NCBI GenBank assembly: GCA_016936175.1
Contig: JAFGPN010000003.1
Coordinates: 1-58,777 of the forward strand
DNA from: Patescibacteria group bacterium
Lineage (GTDB): Bacteria; Patescibacteriota; Kazan-3B-28; UBA10110
Length of the DNA stretch: 58,777 nt
Direction of reading: 5' to 3'
The notes beneath the pieces were generated by a model. That model saw only the letters and a program-made list of their open reading frames with translations. It ran no database searches and had not been told where the DNA came from. Numbering within the stretch: position 1 is the stretch's first letter; every line of letters begins with the position of its first letter. Below are positions 40,494 to 47,732 of the stretch, in pieces. The position numbers were made by a program, and so were the translations under genes.

Positions 40494-41933
40494 ATGAAAA
40501 ACTGCAAGCCCCGTTGGGCAAAATCCATGATTGATTGGGTCGAGCGAGAACTGACCGCTGTATTGGCGGTCGCGATTGTTCTCGCTTTTATCTTTAGCCA
40601 ATCTCTGGCCACTGATGAAACTACTGTTGATGGCCTGGTATCTACCACTACCGGTAGCGCCACTATCCAACAAGTTAGCGCCACTACCCTATCAGAAAGT
40701 GGAAACAAGTTGGTGTTTGGCATCAATATCGATGGCACCACTAATGAGACTACTGCATGGACTGGCACAGAACCGGTTAACTTGGGCAACGGGCTTTATA
40801 TGCTTGGCAGTGCTACAGTTACTACTCTGGTTAATCCTGGCACCTATAACCTAAAGGTAACTGCCAAAGGCGGTGCGGTTACAATCAACTCCATTACCTA
40901 TACCTTTGGTGGTAGCTACGGTAGCCAAACTAAGCAAGTTGTTCTGGCAAGCAACCAGATGGTAGTTGCCTTCTCTGCCGGAACGACCATTTATTCAATC
41001 GAAGCGGTTACCTCCGCTGGCGATACTTCGTCTGGCTCCGGTTCTACTGGGACAGGTAGCTCCACTGGCTCATCTGCTACCACGATAATTCCGATTACCA
41101 GTATCAGTGCCCTACCTTCTCAAAAGACCATCGTTATTAATAAAATAAATCAGGCCAAATTCACTCCCATAGCGCTGGTCCGCAACTCGCTCAACGATCT
41201 GGTCAACGATGTCCCCGTAATTTGGAAATCCAGCGATTCTTCAATCGCTTCCGTAAATAGTGAGGGCGTTGTTACCCCGATTAAGCCAGGCACGGTAACT
41301 CTTACGGCTACAGTGGCCGGCACTACCTTAGAAGCGGCCATATCATTAAATATATTACAAGAGGTTAGCATCCCGACAGTTGATATCACCCCTAAAGAAC
41401 CAGCTGATACCGGGTCAAGCCTGCTGGACAAATTAGCTGATAGCTTAACTGGTAATAAAACCGTAGCCCCCACCACTGGTGGAACTACTCCTGGCAAAAC
41501 CCAGGCCGATTTAGATAAATTAGCCGAGGAATCGAGCAAGGTGGCCGAACAACCCGCCACTTATCCAGGCGCTCCAGAGATAGGTGAAGGGGATGCTTTA
41601 GATGCCTACGCCGCCGCTCAAGCCCAACGCTACACCGAAACCGGCAAAACCCAGGTAACTCAGAAGCAAATCAACGCTATCGTTCAACAGCAGACAACAG
41701 TGACCGCCAAAGTAACCGCTCGATTAAGAATAGGCGCGGCTGAGATTGGTCAGACCTTCCGCGAGATGTTTACCGGTAAGACCATCGTTGATGGCGAGGT
41801 TGTCCAGAAGAAAAGCGTAGCCAAGATAATCGGAGACTGGTTCAAAAACATCTTTGTTTCAGGCACCAGTGCCGATGACGGCGGCGACACCAATCCTCTA
41901 AGTACCGTGGTAGGCGGTCAAGACGAGGAATAA
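40494..41933 (+). CDS. Membrane-anchored/secreted Ser/Thr-rich protein with a Big_2-like Ig domain
   Basis: N-terminal TM; VIWKSSDSSIASVNSEGVVTPIKPGTVTLTAT. Confidence 0.8.
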   Translation: MKNCKPRWAKSMIDWVERELTAVLAVAIVLAFIFSQSLATDETTVDGLVSTTTGSATIQQVSATTLSESGNKLVFGINIDGTTNETTAWTGTEPVNLGNGLYMLGSATVTTLVNPGTYNLKVTAKGGAVTINSITYTFGGSYGSQTKQVVLASNQMVVAFSAGTTIYSIEAVTSAGDTSSGSGSTGTGSSTGSSATTIIPITSISALPSQKTIVINKINQAKFTPIALVRNSLNDLVNDVPVIWKSSDSSIASVNSEGVVTPIKPGTVTLTATVAGTTLEAAISLNILQEVSIPTVDITPKEPADTGSSLLDKLADSLTGNKTVAPTTGGTTPGKTQADLDKLAEESSKVAEQPATYPGAPEIGEGDALDAYAAAQAQRYTETGKTQVTQKQINAIVQQQTTVTAKVTARLRIGAAEIGQTFREMFTGKTIVDGEVVQKKSVAKIIGDWFKNIFVSGTSADDGGDTNPLSTVVGGQDEE

Positions 41934-42178: not shown

Positions 42179-45100
42179 TTACTGTTGAGGAGGGAGTGAT
42201 TCTAGGGAAGCTAGAATCATTTTTTTATCTACACCAGCATGGCAATCCTCGCTCAAACTTAGCGCTCTTGTTAGGAACTCGCGAGCCTGAACGGAATCTT
42301 GTTTAGCTATAACTTCGCCCAAGAATCTATAGGCATCCATGGCCGATTGATCCATCCCTGCGCCAATAAATGCCTCGGCTTGTTTCGCGGTTGGGATAAT
42401 GAAATCCTCCAGATCAATATACCCATCAATATAATCCGCATACGCAGTTATATAAGTACCAATCATGCCGATCCGCTTGTCGTCTGACTTAATACTAGCC
42501 AACTTTGCTCTTGCAGATAAGGTATTGGGTTGCTTAGCACGCAGATAGCAATGTGCTAAATCAACACTAATGGCAGAAAATGTAACAATGTCTGTATTCA
42601 CAAAGAACTCATTTGCTTTATCTAGATAACCCTCTGCTGTAATAAAATCACCCAATGCTATATAAAGTGATCCCAGGCCAAGATTGCTCCAAGCTCGAGT
42701 CTTTGGACGAAACACCCGAGTGGTAATATCCAGAGAGCGGTCTAGTACAGCTTTGGCCCCGTTTTCATCACCCAACCCACGCATCACCTCTGCCTGATTA
42801 TTTAAATACAAGGCCTGGGCAGGTAGATCCCCATCTTGCTCGGCCAATGTTAAACATTCGCTATAGTAATTGTTAGCTAATTCTAACTCTCCAAGCCTCT
42901 GATGGATTATGCCCAAACCATTAAGAGAAGACCTAACGGCATCACGATCGCCAGTCATGCGAGCATAGTAAACCGCCTTCTCAACTAAGCCCTTAGCTCG
43001 GACCAAGTTATCGACCCCCTCTGATCTGCGATAATAAGCACCGATGCGTTTATAAGTATTGCTGAGATTAACAGCTATTAGTCTTCTAAAATTATCGGGT
43101 AATCTATCTAATTCACCCTCTTGTTCAAAGGGTTTTAGGATATCCAGCGCCACCTCGTAGTATTCTCGCGCCGCTCGTTCTGGCTCCTTATCCCCCACTC
43201 GCAGACCCAAATCAGATAGAATCCAAGCGTGATAAGCCGCCCACTCAACCGGGCGGGCTTCTCTCCCATCCTCCCCACCATAGTAACGATGAAATAGCTC
43301 GTGAGCCGATTCCAGTGTCGCCACTTCATCTGTTTGCCGGGCTAGACTGTTCCAGATAAACCGGATAAACAACAATCTTTCGAGTTGCTCTTTCACAGCC
43401 TCAAGTTTCTGCTGTTCACTCATCCCTGGGAAGCCCTGTCGCTCCAATTCATCAAAGGCTTGTACCCCACGCTCCAACACCGAGATAGCGCCAGACTCCT
43501 CACCATAGTTCCGTAATTGCCGGCCATACAGATCAGCGTATTCCAATATCTTAAATAGGTTGCCGCTGTTCTTAGCATGGAAAAACTTAGAAGATAGCTT
43601 ATCCTGCTTACCCGGATAGTCAGTTTCTAAAATAGTTAGGATAGCTTCGTGGGCGGAGTGTTTTTCTTCTATCTTGGCAATGTTGTTATAGATGGTTTCT
43701 TGAGTTATCCGGTGGACAAACCCAAAGTAGCCACCGTCCAAATCATCAATTACACTGTGGTCTAACATCTCCTCCAAACACATGTCTAAGCGCCGTTCCG
43801 GCATGCGGGTAATTTTAAGCAACATCGCCCGGCTTGATTCCAAACCTAAAATAGACATCGCTCGCGCCACCACCTGCGAGTTAGAACTTAGGGCGGCTAT
43901 CTTCTTTTCTTCGATATCTACAATGGTGCCAACCTTCTCCCATAACTCCTGCTGTTTTTCATCGGTTAGATAATAGTTGCGAGTAGCCTTAACCATCTCA
44001 GCGGTTTCGCCCGGCAACGGATAATCGCCAAAGTGCCACTTGCCGGTTTCGGGATGCTGGACAAACACGCTCACTCCCAAATCGGAGCTCATCGCCAAAT
44101 GAGATAAAATCTCTTGCACGTAAAAGATGTTGCCGTGCGAGGCATCTTTAGAAAACACCCGCGAAATAACCTTGGCGGCCGCTAATTTGTTGCGCGAGAG
44201 TTCCCCCTCGTCCATCGAAAAGACCGAGCAGACCAGCGGCCATACCCACTCCTTGTTATTTTCAAACCAGGTGATCTGCGCGTTGCGTAGTTTAAGATAG
44301 TAATCGCGCTTGGCCGCATCGGTCGCCCCTTCTCCCGGATACTCCGGCGGCTCAAACGCTGGGAACGGCTCGATATCCAGCTGATAGGTCTGCTCCGGCA
44401 GATTATGTTTAAGCCCATCAATAATCACTTTTTCGACATCATTAGCCGAAGGCCGGGTGGGAACAGCCCAAACCAGCCCATCGTCAGCGGTCTCGGTCAT
44501 AAATCCAACCAGCAGATCGGCGGATTGTTTATCGATAAATTGCCAATCATCCACAAAGATTACTGGAACCTCCTTGCCAACTGATTGACGATTGAGCCGA
44601 AGTATATCTTGCATTAACTTAAGCGTCTCGGCGCGCTGTTCGGTTCTATCCAACCACTTAACCCGATCGGTTGGCATAAAGGCTGTATCTAACACCGCAT
44701 TTAATAGCGCCATCCGCTCTGTAATATCTGCCGGCAATTCTCGGCTTAAAATGCGCGCCTCTAAATCTTTCGGGTCTTCGATATCTTCCGGAATGTCTAA
44801 TAATTGATGAACAAACTGTTTGGCCGTGCTCAATGGCAATTTGCGATTGGCTTCATCAGACCGGACATCAATCTTGTATATCCGGCCAGCTTCTAAGTTG
44901 TTGGCGATAGATTTAGAAACCACCGCGGTTTTACCTACACCAGCCTCACCCTCAACCACCAAAATCTGACTTTTACCGGTAGCTATAGCCAAATCAATAA
45001 CCTCGTCAATCTTACCCTCTTCTTTCTCGCGACCGACTATCTTCTCGACTTCGGCGTAACGCCCGGCTCGATAATCTATTTTGTCTACTATAAAAGTCTC

Positions 45101-46618
45101 GACCGCGCCCACGCCACGTAGCTCCAGCTCTCCTCCCTCACTACACCGCAAGCGATGGCTGGCTCTTCGGTGGGTTGTACCGCTAATTACTACTCCGTTT
45201 TCCGGCGCCGACTGCATTAATCTCGCCGATTCGTTTACTCGTTTACCCACTCGGGTAAAGGTTTGATTCCCATCAACTCCGGCTACCCCAGAAAAGGCAT
45301 AATCGGTAGAAATACCCGCTCTAAATGGAAGGTTATGCTTGACTAAAACCTGGCCAGATTCGTAGGTGGCTCGAGTAGCATGATATTCGTTGCTCGGCCC
45401 GGAAAATGTAGAATAAACAACGCCCTCACCAGTGATTCGCTCCACCGAACCGTTGTTCTGCTCGACAATGTGCAATATCCTACTAATTGGTTGGTTCAAT
45501 TGCTGGTACAACTCTGCCTCGCTCTGTCCGTTGCTCAACTTCTCTGTCATTTGGTATAGACCAATTACCTTAGTAAAGGCGGTAGAGACCCGCGGGTACT
45601 CCCACGACGGCTTAAATTCAACTGGTCTCCCCTCTTCGAAAGCAGAGACTACCGCTGATTTCATTTCATCACGCCGATCCCGGGGAATGTGCGCCTCGTA
45701 AAATCGATTCAACTCCTCGAGGGGCACGTCTGTTTCTACCTCGCGGAGCTCGATTGCGGTAAGGTTTGGTTTGTCCTCGCCGTGCAGAGTAGATAGCACA
45801 TAGTTACCGGCTTCGATACCCTTAAAATATGATTTGGGTAGAAGTTGACGCACCGATGAACTAACAGCTACCTGATGTTTCTCCGGATCGGCAAACCGCT
45901 GAAGGGCATCCGCTCTTGGGATTACCTCGCCAAATACGGCAAAACATCTGAGATAGTCATCACCTAAACTGGTAACCACTAAATCGTCATCTCCCTTATT
46001 AGTACAATCTACGCCTACCCGAAAAGTTAGATCGATCGACTCGTCCTTAAATTTGACGGGAGGCAAAGTTTTGGCGGATTCCTGAAACTGGCTAGCTACA
46101 AACACTGCCCGACGAACTGCCTCGGCTGAGTTTTCGTCTGGCAGGCTGGGAAAAAATATCCGCCTGCCGTCACCTTCGGCGGTAACCATCGTACCACCGT
46201 ACTGTTCGGCAATACCCAGTAGCCTGGCATCGGCCTCTTCCATCAGCAACCCCAACTGTTCGCCAGCCAATTTTTCGCCCACCTCATCAGCTAATCGAGT
46301 GGTGTGTTTAGAAAAATCTTTGGCATCGGCAGATATTAAAGCTCCGTGTAGATGACGAAATCCTTCGTGTAAATCATACGACAATAACTCCGGGGTATGC
46401 CCGTGGAGTAGCTTAAGAAATTCACGAGTCTGGTAAGGATTAACTTCCGTAGATTTTTCTACCTCCACCAACTCCAAACCGGCCGGTTCGACCTCTGTCG
46501 ATGCCGACCTACCATCGTTCGGCGGTTCCCCATTATGGGACGGTTCCGCTAAAACAATTCCATCCGGATTAGTGGGAACCTGGTCTGGTTCTTGCTTGAT
46601 ATCGCCCTCGTTGGTCAT
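42179..46618 (-). CDS. Tandem class III nucleotidyl cyclase + STAND ATPase + TPR protein (soluble adenylyl cyclase-like)
   Basis: C1: ISADAKDFS, AEGDG. C2: VGKRVNESARLM. Walker A GEAGVGKT, Walker B IFVDD. TPR-like C-terminus. Confidence 0.85.
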   Translation of the reverse strand: MTNEGDIKQEPDQVPTNPDGIVLAEPSHNGEPPNDGRSASTEVEPAGLELVEVEKSTEVNPYQTREFLKLLHGHTPELLSYDLHEGFRHLHGALISADAKDFSKHTTRLADEVGEKLAGEQLGLLMEEADARLLGIAEQYGGTMVTAEGDGRRIFFPSLPDENSAEAVRRAVFVASQFQESAKTLPPVKFKDESIDLTFRVGVDCTNKGDDDLVVTSLGDDYLRCFAVFGEVIPRADALQRFADPEKHQVAVSSSVRQLLPKSYFKGIEAGNYVLSTLHGEDKPNLTAIELREVETDVPLEELNRFYEAHIPRDRRDEMKSAVVSAFEEGRPVEFKPSWEYPRVSTAFTKVIGLYQMTEKLSNGQSEAELYQQLNQPISRILHIVEQNNGSVERITGEGVVYSTFSGPSNEYHATRATYESGQVLVKHNLPFRAGISTDYAFSGVAGVDGNQTFTRVGKRVNESARLMQSAPENGVVISGTTHRRASHRLRCSEGGELELRGVGAVETFIVDKIDYRAGRYAEVEKIVGREKEEGKIDEVIDLAIATGKSQILVVEGEAGVGKTAVVSKSIANNLEAGRIYKIDVRSDEANRKLPLSTAKQFVHQLLDIPEDIEDPKDLEARILSRELPADITERMALLNAVLDTAFMPTDRVKWLDRTEQRAETLKLMQDILRLNRQSVGKEVPVIFVDDWQFIDKQSADLLVGFMTETADDGLVWAVPTRPSANDVEKVIIDGLKHNLPEQTYQLDIEPFPAFEPPEYPGEGATDAAKRDYYLKLRNAQITWFENNKEWVWPLVCSVFSMDEGELSRNKLAAAKVISRVFSKDASHGNIFYVQEILSHLAMSSDLGVSVFVQHPETGKWHFGDYPLPGETAEMVKATRNYYLTDEKQQELWEKVGTIVDIEEKKIAALSSNSQVVARAMSILGLESSRAMLLKITRMPERRLDMCLEEMLDHSVIDDLDGGYFGFVHRITQETIYNNIAKIEEKHSAHEAILTILETDYPGKQDKLSSKFFHAKNSGNLFKILEYADLYGRQLRNYGEESGAISVLERGVQAFDELERQGFPGMSEQQKLEAVKEQLERLLFIRFIWNSLARQTDEVATLESAHELFHRYYGGEDGREARPVEWAAYHAWILSDLGLRVGDKEPERAAREYYEVALDILKPFEQEGELDRLPDNFRRLIAVNLSNTYKRIGAYYRRSEGVDNLVRAKGLVEKAVYYARMTGDRDAVRSSLNGLGIIHQRLGELELANNYYSECLTLAEQDGDLPAQALYLNNQAEVMRGLGDENGAKAVLDRSLDITTRVFRPKTRAWSNLGLGSLYIALGDFITAEGYLDKANEFFVNTDIVTFSAISVDLAHCYLRAKQPNTLSARAKLASIKSDDKRIGMIGTYITAYADYIDGYIDLEDFIIPTAKQAEAFIGAGMDQSAMDAYRFLGEVIAKQDSVQAREFLTRALSLSEDCHAGVDKKMILASLESLPPQQ

Positions 46619-46666: not shown

Positions 46667-46695
46667 ATCCTACCACTTCTCCCCTCTTTTGTCAA
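46667..46695 (-). promoter_or_regulatory. Promoter for the cyclase gene
   Basis: TTGACA-17-TAGGAT; a second TATAAT at 46627-46632. Confidence 0.55.
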
Positions 46696-46815
46696 CCCCG
46701 TTAGAAGTCCGGAGAAGCCCTGGGAATAATGCAGAGCCACAGCGCATTAGTTGTCGTTTCACTATCCGCCAACCCCATTACATTAGCCAATCTCATCAGC
46801 GACTTCTAACGGGGT
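46695..46815. mobile_element. 121-bp cassette with 15-bp perfect inverted repeats ACCCCGTTAGAAGTC
   Basis: Arms at 46695-46709 and 46801-46815. Confidence 0.65.
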
Positions 46816-47139
46816 CAACTGGCGCCGTTTACCTTGCGGCGTCATCCCCGCCCCCGATCGTAGTCGAGGGTAAACTCCGGCGGGGACCCAGACAGAAAAA
46901 GAAAGTTTTTGTTTCCACCTGGATCCTGAATAAGCTATTTATAATGAGCCTACGGCAGTTAGGTGTTTTCAGGATGACAGGGGGTAAGGTTAACAAATGG
47001 GGTCAACCCAATAAAAAACTCCCAAAAGTTCGAGACCACATTAAAGCGATCTCAATCCTGAGGGAGTTGTTGTTCGAGGCGATCTTGGTCACTTCTGAAG
47101 AGTGACCACATTAATCTAACCCGGCGCTACTGCCGGTAA

Positions 47140-47586
47140 TCATTTCACAAATCGCCCGATGTGGACATGGTCGGATAGGATATATTCCCCAGGTCCATCG
47201 ACACGGAACTCCAACCACATATAGCCGGCATCGTAGTTCGATCGATCATTTGGGGTAATTAGCCGCTCTGGGCTTTCTTGCCCAAAGACTATGTACACCG
47301 CCGCAGCGATAAAGCCAATCTGTTGCTTCTCGGTTTCCGTGAAGCGCCAGCCATAGCTGACAGTGTCCCCATGGATACCAATATCCTGCTCACCGCCGGT
47401 AAATGTCTTCCAGCCGTTGCCGGCGTCATAGTAGTACCCGGGTGTGCTGGGGGGTCCGCCACCACCGAACAGGCCACTGCCAACCGACGAGCCACCGAAG
47501 CTCTTGTGCCCCTTCGGGCACGCTGCTACCCCTATGCAAACGATTGCCAGGAGTAAGAAAATTATCAACGAACGCACTTTCTTCAC
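47140..47586 (-). CDS. Hypothetical lipoprotein
   Basis: GTG start; KKVRSLIIFLLLAIVCIGVAA-C lipobox; Gly/Ser linker. Confidence 0.65.
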   Translation of the reverse strand: MKKVRSLIIFLLLAIVCIGVAACPKGHKSFGGSSVGSGLFGGGGPPSTPGYYYDAGNGWKTFTGGEQDIGIHGDTVSYGWRFTETEKQQIGFIAAAVYIVFGQESPERLITPNDRSNYDAGYMWLEFRVDGPGEYILSDHVHIGRFVK

Positions 47587-47732
47587 CTGCCCTGCTCGGG
47601 CCTTAAATAGTCGCTGGTCCTTCTTATAGTCTGCTCTGGGAGCTAAAAACCAAGCGCCACCCAAAGAATAGCACCTCTTTTACTTTTGTCCACCCCGCCA
47701 GCCATCCTGAAAAAATCTAACCCAAATCCAAT

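Follow-up and report, generated by a model that had tools for sequence, protein, structure and literature searches.

sAC-Type Cyclases and the Kazan Locus

Human soluble adenylyl cyclase (sAC, the ADCY10 product), which in its full-length form has a P-loop at residues 516-523 just after the second of its two cyclase domains (C1 and C2), followed by TPR-like motifs (PMC3475452), and the bacterial sAC-like cyclases cited in PMC3085406 are the closest described systems to the protein dealt with here. That protein is encoded in a 58,777-nucleotide stretch of DNA (hereafter the window, i.e., the whole of the stretch analysed), which is contig 12 of a candidate division Kazan genome (GCA_016936175.1, contig JAFGPN010000003.1; 670 kb in 18 contigs, ~90% complete) of the candidate phyla radiation (CPR), and in which a minus-strand gene at 42179..46618, the fourth-largest of this 0.67-Mb genome, specifies a 1479-amino-acid (aa) product, P0001. 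An earlier note on this DNA, made from the letters alone, had given the same open reading frame (ORF) and length, which the ORF list and the translation confirm. Judging by its sequence and by structure models, P0001 is rather likely to be a ligand-gated, cytoplasmic nucleotidyl cyclase of the sAC/ADCY10 design that has one composite active site and is likely to make cyclic AMP (cAMP).

The likeness to sAC (core structures 4clf, 4clk and 4oya) lies in the order of the parts, namely C1, C2, P-loop NTPase (the P-loop being at 557-564 in P0001) and TPR-like region, and in how the catalytic residues are divided, with both metal-binding Asp residues kept in a C1 that has lost Asn/Arg, and a Thr-x6-Asn-x3-Arg motif present in C2. 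The identity between the two proteins is only ~14%, and P0001 differs from sAC in having R394 at the substrate-Lys site as well as an extra acidic leader. The bicarbonate-site residues of sAC, Lys95 and Arg176 in the human protein, correspond to T146 and D237 of P0001 in the alignment made with A3 (a family profile of residues 55-528 built from nine family members), and every Kazan homologue has an acidic residue, Asp or Glu, where human sAC has Arg176; as these residues are not kept, bicarbonate control is not expected. No counterpart of the haem-binding segment of sAC was evident in P0001, no search having been aimed at this segment. P0001 thus appears to be like sAC in its catalytic design, and bicarbonate regulation should not be assumed for it.

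The same architecture is found in bacterial tandem-cyclase/AAA_16/TPR proteins (“class 3 adenylate cyclase/predicted ATPase”, including 6yii), while Mycobacterium Rv0386-type proteins are of a single-cyclase AAA-TPR-LuxR kind. When the tandem-cyclase profile was run with HMMER, exhaustively, against 1.84 billion cluster representatives, 7,166 of them matched at E<=1e-10; of the best 150, most have a length of 1200-1550 aa and are matched over C1 and C2 in a single collinear block close to their N-terminus, and among the seven representatives that were sampled, AAA_16 was present in all seven, two PF00211 domains in six, and TPR likewise in six, with P0007, P0010 and P0031 showing the same layout as P0001. 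Since this architecture is very common in public data, P0001 is not unusual as a type: the architecture is already known and abundant, and P0001 is a further member. The Kazan proteins are, nevertheless, only 22-27% identical to the members from outside, form their own clade, lack the LuxR helix-turn-helix (HTH) and, unlike those outside relatives, are too divergent for the Pfam cyclase model and reside in a fixed chromosomal slot of fast turnover. The parts of the gene are as follows:

42179..46618, minus strand: whole gene, tandem class III cyclase, STAND NTPase and TPR protein P0001, 1479 aa (ORF list, translation)
46448..46618, minus strand: acidic, Pro-rich N-terminal leader, aa 1-57, unconserved in sequence (identity, composition)
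45794..46447, minus strand: C1 cyclase-homology domain, aa 58-275 (family-profile match to sAC 39-202, i-Evalue 7.7e-12)
46325-46327 and 46169-46171, minus strand: codons of the C1 metal-binding Asp residues D98 and D150, respectively (residues read directly)
45605..45793, minus strand: C1-C2 linker, aa 276-338 (AlphaFold2 model of residues 55-528; ~50% identity among type A proteins, defined below)
45074..45604, minus strand: C2 cyclase-homology domain, aa 339-515 (phmmer to CyaB and CyaC; profile alignment to sAC)
45221-45256, minus strand: codons of C2 residues T455, N462 and R466 (residues read directly)
44444..45073, minus strand: STAND NTPase, AAA_16 (Pfam AAA_16 5e-12; Foldseek 6mfv, MalT, Apaf-1)
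44927-44950, minus strand: Walker A, GEAGVGKT, aa 557-564 (residues read directly)
44537-44563, minus strand: Walker B, VIFVDDWQF (residues read directly)
43019..44443, minus strand: helical arm, winged-helix and helical-repeat region of the STAND module, aa 726-1200 (AlphaFold2 model, mean confidence 85.3; Foldseek 6mfv)
42182..43018, minus strand: C-terminal TPR sensor array, aa 1201-1479 (Pfam TPR_12 1e-13 and TPR_MalT; LGN/Pins-type TPR structures)

The Cyclase Pair

Direct reading of the residues agrees with the complementary split that had been proposed in the earlier note (the Asp pair in C1 without NxxxR, N..AR in C2 without the Asp pair). C1 has the motifs ALISADAKDFS (D98) and VTAEGDGRRIF (D150), and at the place of the canonical G-x-x-V-N-x-x-x-R it reads GEVIPRADALQ, where Asn is replaced by P234 and Arg by A238. 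In C2, the first-Asp site (VSTAFTKVIGL) has no Asp (K350 instead), VERITGEGV puts E398 at the second Asp site and R394 at the substrate-Lys site, and T455, N462 and R466 are kept within TRVGKRVNESAR.

As Pfam gives no cyclase match, cyclase homology was shown via a search of the PDB, the family profile and structure instead. Using phmmer against the PDB, C2 matches Pseudomonas aeruginosa CyaB (3r5g) at 1.5e-5 and Spirulina CyaC (1wc0) at 4.6e-4. With the A3 profile, CyaB is matched at 1.2e-18, and human sAC, with C1 and C2 collinear, at 1.3e-16. The best tandem match in the PDB is sAC, but the single-domain CyaB scores higher. In the A3-sAC alignment, C1 corresponds to sAC 39-202 and C2 to sAC 380-437, the Thr/Asn/Arg motif being in register: TVIGQKVNLAAR of sAC is aligned with the TRVGKRVNESAR of P0001, and T455 falls on the Thr of the sAC TVIGQKVN, i.e., on the Thr that replaces the substrate Asp as a class IIIb signature.

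The AlphaFold2 (AF2) model of residues 55-528 has a predicted local distance difference test score (pLDDT) of 86.5 and a predicted template modelling score of 0.86, and in a Foldseek search of the PDB, its top 24 matches are all to the catalytic core of human sAC (E 2.7e-22), with template modelling (TM) scores of 0.71-0.73 taken over the entire two-domain model. Next come the C1/C2 soluble domains of AC9 and then the P. aeruginosa AC-like ATP-binding protein 6yii, and the model superposes on the two-domain cores of sAC and AC9 at TM 0.66-0.73. Two cyclase-homology folds in one chain, predicted to be packed as a head-to-tail pair, are thus supported by the model, and the sAC/ADCY10-type pseudo-heterodimer of the earlier note is borne out by the sequence profile as well as by the AF2/Foldseek structure match.

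Distribution and Conservation of the Family

A protein search of the genomes of the respective GTDB order (n = 26) found full-length homologues in nine, with a tenth, that of G011, having come from inspection of the chromosomal slot. The proteins referred to here as type A (those of the window genome, i.e., G000, of G014 and of G019, as well as metagenomic proteins) are 49-68% identical to one another, whereas those of type B (G001, G005, G010, G011, G012, G013 and G015) are 18-25% identical to P0001, being collinear with it over ~1300-1450 aa; the homologues of P0001 at 53-68% identity, whether full-length or partial, number five. Within a sample of 401 Patescibacteria genomes, the tandem form is confined to the Kazan order, and 22 further genomes have single cyclase-domain matches in reading frames of ~310-715 aa. 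A maximum-likelihood tree placed all Kazan proteins in one clade (100/100) as opposed to 17 outside cyclase-AAA_16 proteins, and repeated acquisition from outside the CPR was rejected on account of this single clade.

Across homologues that are ~20% identical, only 24 columns of the cyclase region are invariant, seven of which are in canonical catalytic motifs. D98, G149-D150-G151, R200, G202, T455, G458 and R466 are unchanged across 18-25% identity (D98 and D150 in nine homologues), position 394 is Lys or Arg throughout (Arg in type A and Lys in type B), and further along the chain, G557, G560, G562 and K563 of Walker A are invariant and the Walker B Asp is conserved. An intact active site, as the earlier note had it, is therefore plausible, with D98, G149-D150-G151, T455, G458 and R466 among the 24 columns. 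Identities of 50-66% over all of the folded domains of type A orthologues, as opposed to a mean pairwise identity of 18% for the leader, suggest purifying constraint on the whole protein, and from the conservation, we infer a constraint on a working active site and switch.

The STAND-TPR Module and the Proposed Mechanism

The C-terminal two-thirds of P0001 were matched by Pfam to AAA_16 (5e-12, aa 527-712) and TPR_12 (1e-13), with TPR_MalT matching as well, and were modelled using AF2 as residues 512-1479 (pLDDT 85.3). The best Foldseek match of this model is the archaeal STAND-with-TPR protein 6mfv (4.9e-12), the next ones being LGN/Pins-type peptide-binding TPRs (~1e-8, TM up to 0.79 of the target), and MalT (8bob, 1.9e-6), Apaf-1 (1z6t, 1.7e-5) and Rap proteins come further down. 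Pfam, the AF2 model and the Foldseek matches therefore agree on a STAND NTPase with a TPR sensor, and the “NLR-type” label that the earlier note had attached to the protein is correct in the broad STAND sense. The order of NTPase, helical arm, winged helix and TPR is common to P0001, PH0952 (6mfv) and MalT (8bob), but the latter two carry no cyclase, the output of MalT being a LuxR HTH. As P0001 has no other output domain, the cyclase is its only plausible output.

The protein would then work as follows: C1 and C2, two diverged class III domains packed head-to-tail, would form a single composite active site, to which C1 would contribute the metal-binding D98 and D150, and C2 the base- and phosphate-contacting R394 (Lys site), T455 (Asp/Thr site), N462 and R466. 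A peptide or protein cue would be bound by the C-terminal TPR array, upon which the AAA_16 STAND NTPase would exchange its nucleotide and oligomerise, and the oligomerised NTPase might turn on or concentrate the cyclase core. The product would be a 3',5'-cyclic nucleotide, and since the Lys/Arg and Thr pair is the class IIIb/sAC signature, cAMP is the likeliest one. All in all, P0001 is probably an active, ligand-gated cyclase of the cAMP type. How little is understood of the NTPase/TPR region of full-length sAC adds to the interest of such proteins, whose compact prokaryotic versions could serve as tractable models.

A Fixed Slot with Fast-Changing Content

The slot in which the gene resides has the order L10, L7/L12, TGT, [X], exported Big_2 protein, LigT, GMP-like nucleotidyltransferase, SecD and SecF; it is conserved across both families of the order, and the cyclase is always located there, at [X]. 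Compared with G014, which is of the same genus, the window genome has 67% identity for the cyclase, 91% for SecD and 92% for HisS, and the comparison with G019, which is of another genus, gives 65% for the cyclase and 74% for SecD. G015, also of the window's genus, has a type B allele that is ~20% identical to P0001 in the identical slot (L015:6679-10473), in a genome whose SecD, GMP-like nucleotidyltransferase and HisS are 89%, 84% and 93% identical, respectively, to those of the window genome. The tree puts this allele with a protein of the order's other family, a placement suggestive of recombination having replaced one allele by another.

Elsewhere, the cyclase is replaced in the slot by giant HD-GYP proteins (G004, L025:4707-9329; G007, C4:14547-16124), and a further such giant is present in G008 (C2:36064-36699), placement in the slot having been established for G004 and G007. 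In these giants, which are 1433-1544 aa long, an acidic leader precedes tandem HD_5 (HD-GYP-like) domains, and the tail is long and helical; the leader is similar on both types of slot protein. That they might represent the same chassis with a swapped effector was considered and rejected: the hhalign probability of the C-terminal part against the STAND-TPR profile is 0.6%, and the G004 giant has no P-loop motif on reading of its sequence and no AAA or TPR domain by Pfam. In G016, G018, G021 and G022, the slot holds small ORFs only. With divergent alleles, HD-GYP giants and small ORFs as its contents, the locus is best described as a fixed site subject to rapid allele turnover, replacement and loss, and it is this combination, a fixed slot whose content changes far faster than the surrounding genes, that makes it worth attention.

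Candidate Receptors of the Signal

A minimal, host-dependent genome that invests in a large sAC-like sensor-cyclase while having neither a canonical cyclic nucleotide monophosphate (cNMP) receptor nor a cyclic di-GMP (c-di-GMP) synthase is significant in itself, and poses a question: if the cyclase is active, which reader of the signal does a minimal cell have? The answer might uncover a receptor of a non-canonical kind or show that cAMP is directed at the host. The earlier note had stated that no CRP or effector is visible in the window; for the cNMP_binding domain, this extends to the genome as a whole, but another contig encodes a protein with a cNMP-type GAF. This 397-aa protein (C17:7029-8222) unites the sole GAF and the sole HD-GYP domain of the genome and has the HDYGK and GGGYP motifs. 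Its full length is matched by PmGH (4mcw), the HD-GYP phosphodiesterase of Persephonella, at 5.7e-51, and its GAF matches the cAMP-binding GAFs of Anabaena CyaB2 (1ykd) at 7.8e-35, as well as GAF-B of both PDE10A and PDE2A. A cNMP-regulated phosphodiesterase is a plausible assignment for this protein, which would make it the sole visible candidate receptor.

Other candidates in the order were dismissed, as the GAF protein of G010 is a sigma-54 activator and the HD-GYP of G001 is a contig-end fragment. The former (L033:487-1815) has a GAF-AAA-HTH layout of the sigma-54 type, unusual for CPR, and its short contig may be contamination. Among the 26 genomes of the order, cNMP_binding occurs in G005 and G006 only, and so does GGDEF, which the window genome lacks. 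In the 401-genome sample, the cyclase and HD-GYP overlap in 5 genomes, against an expectation of 1.5 (p=0.011; 0.04 after collapsing to genera). This modest co-occurrence is taken as no more than suggestive, since genes for signalling often occur in each other's company.

Alternative Readings of P0001

There are several observations that weigh against an active cyclase whose product is read within the cell. Pfam Guanylate_cyc (PF00211) has no match on P0001 at E<=1; the substrate Lys is replaced by Arg (R394) in the clade of P0001, and N462 is Val or Ile in three divergent type B Kazan homologues. No cNMP_binding domain is found in the ~90%-complete genome, nor in eight of the nine carriers from the first protein search, and the GAF-HD-GYP protein is present in G000 and G015 only, i.e., in 2/10 carriers vs. 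0/16 other genomes (p=0.14, not significant). Furthermore, one metatranscriptome of the source study has no reads on the cyclase gene, the DNA run, 56% of which was read, likewise being without coverage of the gene. Much of this would fit a protein in which C1/C2 bind ATP or another nucleotide as a sensor without cyclising it, making P0001 a nucleotide-sensing STAND scaffold, for which the tandem AC-like 6yii is a precedent (Foldseek E 3.5e-14, TM 0.57; profile match 1.2e-9): the domains are too divergent for PF00211, Arg takes the place of Lys at 394, N462 is not universal, and no conserved receptor of a product was found. Invariance of the metal Asp pair, the transition-state Arg and the Thr at ~20% identity, however, exceeds what ATP binding by itself should require, and P0001 is without the other output domain, such as an HTH, that its LuxR-tailed relatives have, for which reasons we consider such a pseudo-cyclase unlikely.

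The lack of cNMP_binding and GGDEF in the genome could also mean that P0001 itself, or what it makes, is passed on to the bacterium hosting this episymbiont, where it would perturb second-messenger signalling, with TPR-STAND as an activator dependent on a host factor and the HD-GYP giants as alternative effectors. The slot that alternates between cyclase-STAND-TPR proteins, HD-GYP proteins of 1433-1544 aa and nothing, the ~20%-identical alleles within a genus whose SecD is 89% identical, the unconserved acidic Pro-rich leader on both types of slot protein and the exported products of the flanking genes would all be in keeping with that. The leader is, however, a purely compositional feature; P0001 has neither a signal peptide nor a secretion signal that can be recognised, its gene has no secretion system linked to it, the STAND-TPR cyclases of free-living bacteria are cytoplasmic sensors, and no sign of export was seen in this analysis, leaving a host-directed effector quite unlikely. 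It would be just as improbable for the TGT-Big2 slot to be a contingency locus for large second-messenger enzymes with acidic leaders, be they cyclase-STAND-TPR proteins or tandem HD-GYP giants, that act on the host bacterium and not on the symbiont's own absent cNMP/c-di-GMP circuitry; were it true, one bacterium would be using the cyclase for a “cAMP intoxication” of another, gated by a host factor.

As for defence, the earlier note had brought up the anti-phage Avs systems, and an NLR-like reading of the Avs/Pycsar style would have the TPR detect a phage protein and the cyclase signal trigger abortive infection. Avs does share the STAND and TPR sensor logic, and Pycsar a class III-like cyclase making a cNMP signal; P0001 does combine an enzymatic domain at its N-terminus with a STAND NTPase and a TPR sensor, the spread is patchy (9/26 genomes of the order by the protein search), and the allele turnover in one slot is compatible with conflict, which need not be phage-specific. 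Nonetheless, the models fail to carry the comparison any further: the Avs4 ones reach no more than ~35 residues around the P-loop (NCBIfam Avs4, E 0.027, residues 540-574 only; PADLOC Avs4, E 0.02; not significant), while the PycC ones, at <=21.6 bits (3e-5), match part of C2 only, which amounts to weak, generic cyclase homology. Neither a Pycsar-type adjacent cNMP-binding effector nor one elsewhere in the genome is present, the neighbours are ribosomal, tRNA-modification and Sec genes of a housekeeping character instead of a defence island, the family is vertically anchored and monophyletic in the order, and the architecture per se is that of a very common housekeeping-style signalling protein. 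The Avs reading is thus unsupported, and a role in anti-phage defence is very unlikely.

Upstream Region and Neighbouring Genes

Two features, coming from a consensus scan and from a repeat search, respectively, precede the gene:

46667..46695, minus strand: promoter-like TTGACA-17-TAGGAT with a TG-extended -10, 48 nt upstream of the ATG (10/12 matches; consensus match only)
46695..46815, no strand assigned: small hairpin-ended element with two perfect 15-nt inverted arms, 46695-46709 and 46801-46815, 91 nt apart

The proximal arm (46695-46709) adjoins the -35 hexamer at 46695, just as the earlier note had remarked of a cassette arm abutting the -35 box, and the element is similar to hairpin-ended cassettes at other sites of the genome. 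Upstream of the promoter, pieces of the intergenic 46840-46986 recur at 90-99% identity on several other contigs of the source metagenome run, indicating a multi-copy repeat distinct from the 15-nt-armed element.

The convergent neighbour at 40494-41933 (plus strand) is the Big_2 protein of the slot: exported and 479 aa long, it has a membrane anchor at its N-terminus, linkers rich in Ser and Thr, and a single, weak Big_2 domain. It persists in the slot where the cyclase is absent and outpaces the flanking housekeeping genes, with 57% identity within the genus and 38-40% between genera. On the other side, a small ORF at 47140-47664 (minus strand) has a lipoprotein-like start (LLLAIVCIGVAAC), a Gly-rich linker and no Pfam match, and BLAST aligns only a 33-aa stretch of it, at 85% identity, with the corresponding ORF of G014.

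A simple composition score for acidic/Pro-rich N-termini puts the leader of P0001 in third place among the genome's 487 ORFs, and, as a compositional observation, an acidic, Pro-rich and unconserved N-terminus of ~55 aa is also seen on other large soluble proteins of the genome (C15:33362-35497, C15:35494-37473 and C13:46668-49109).

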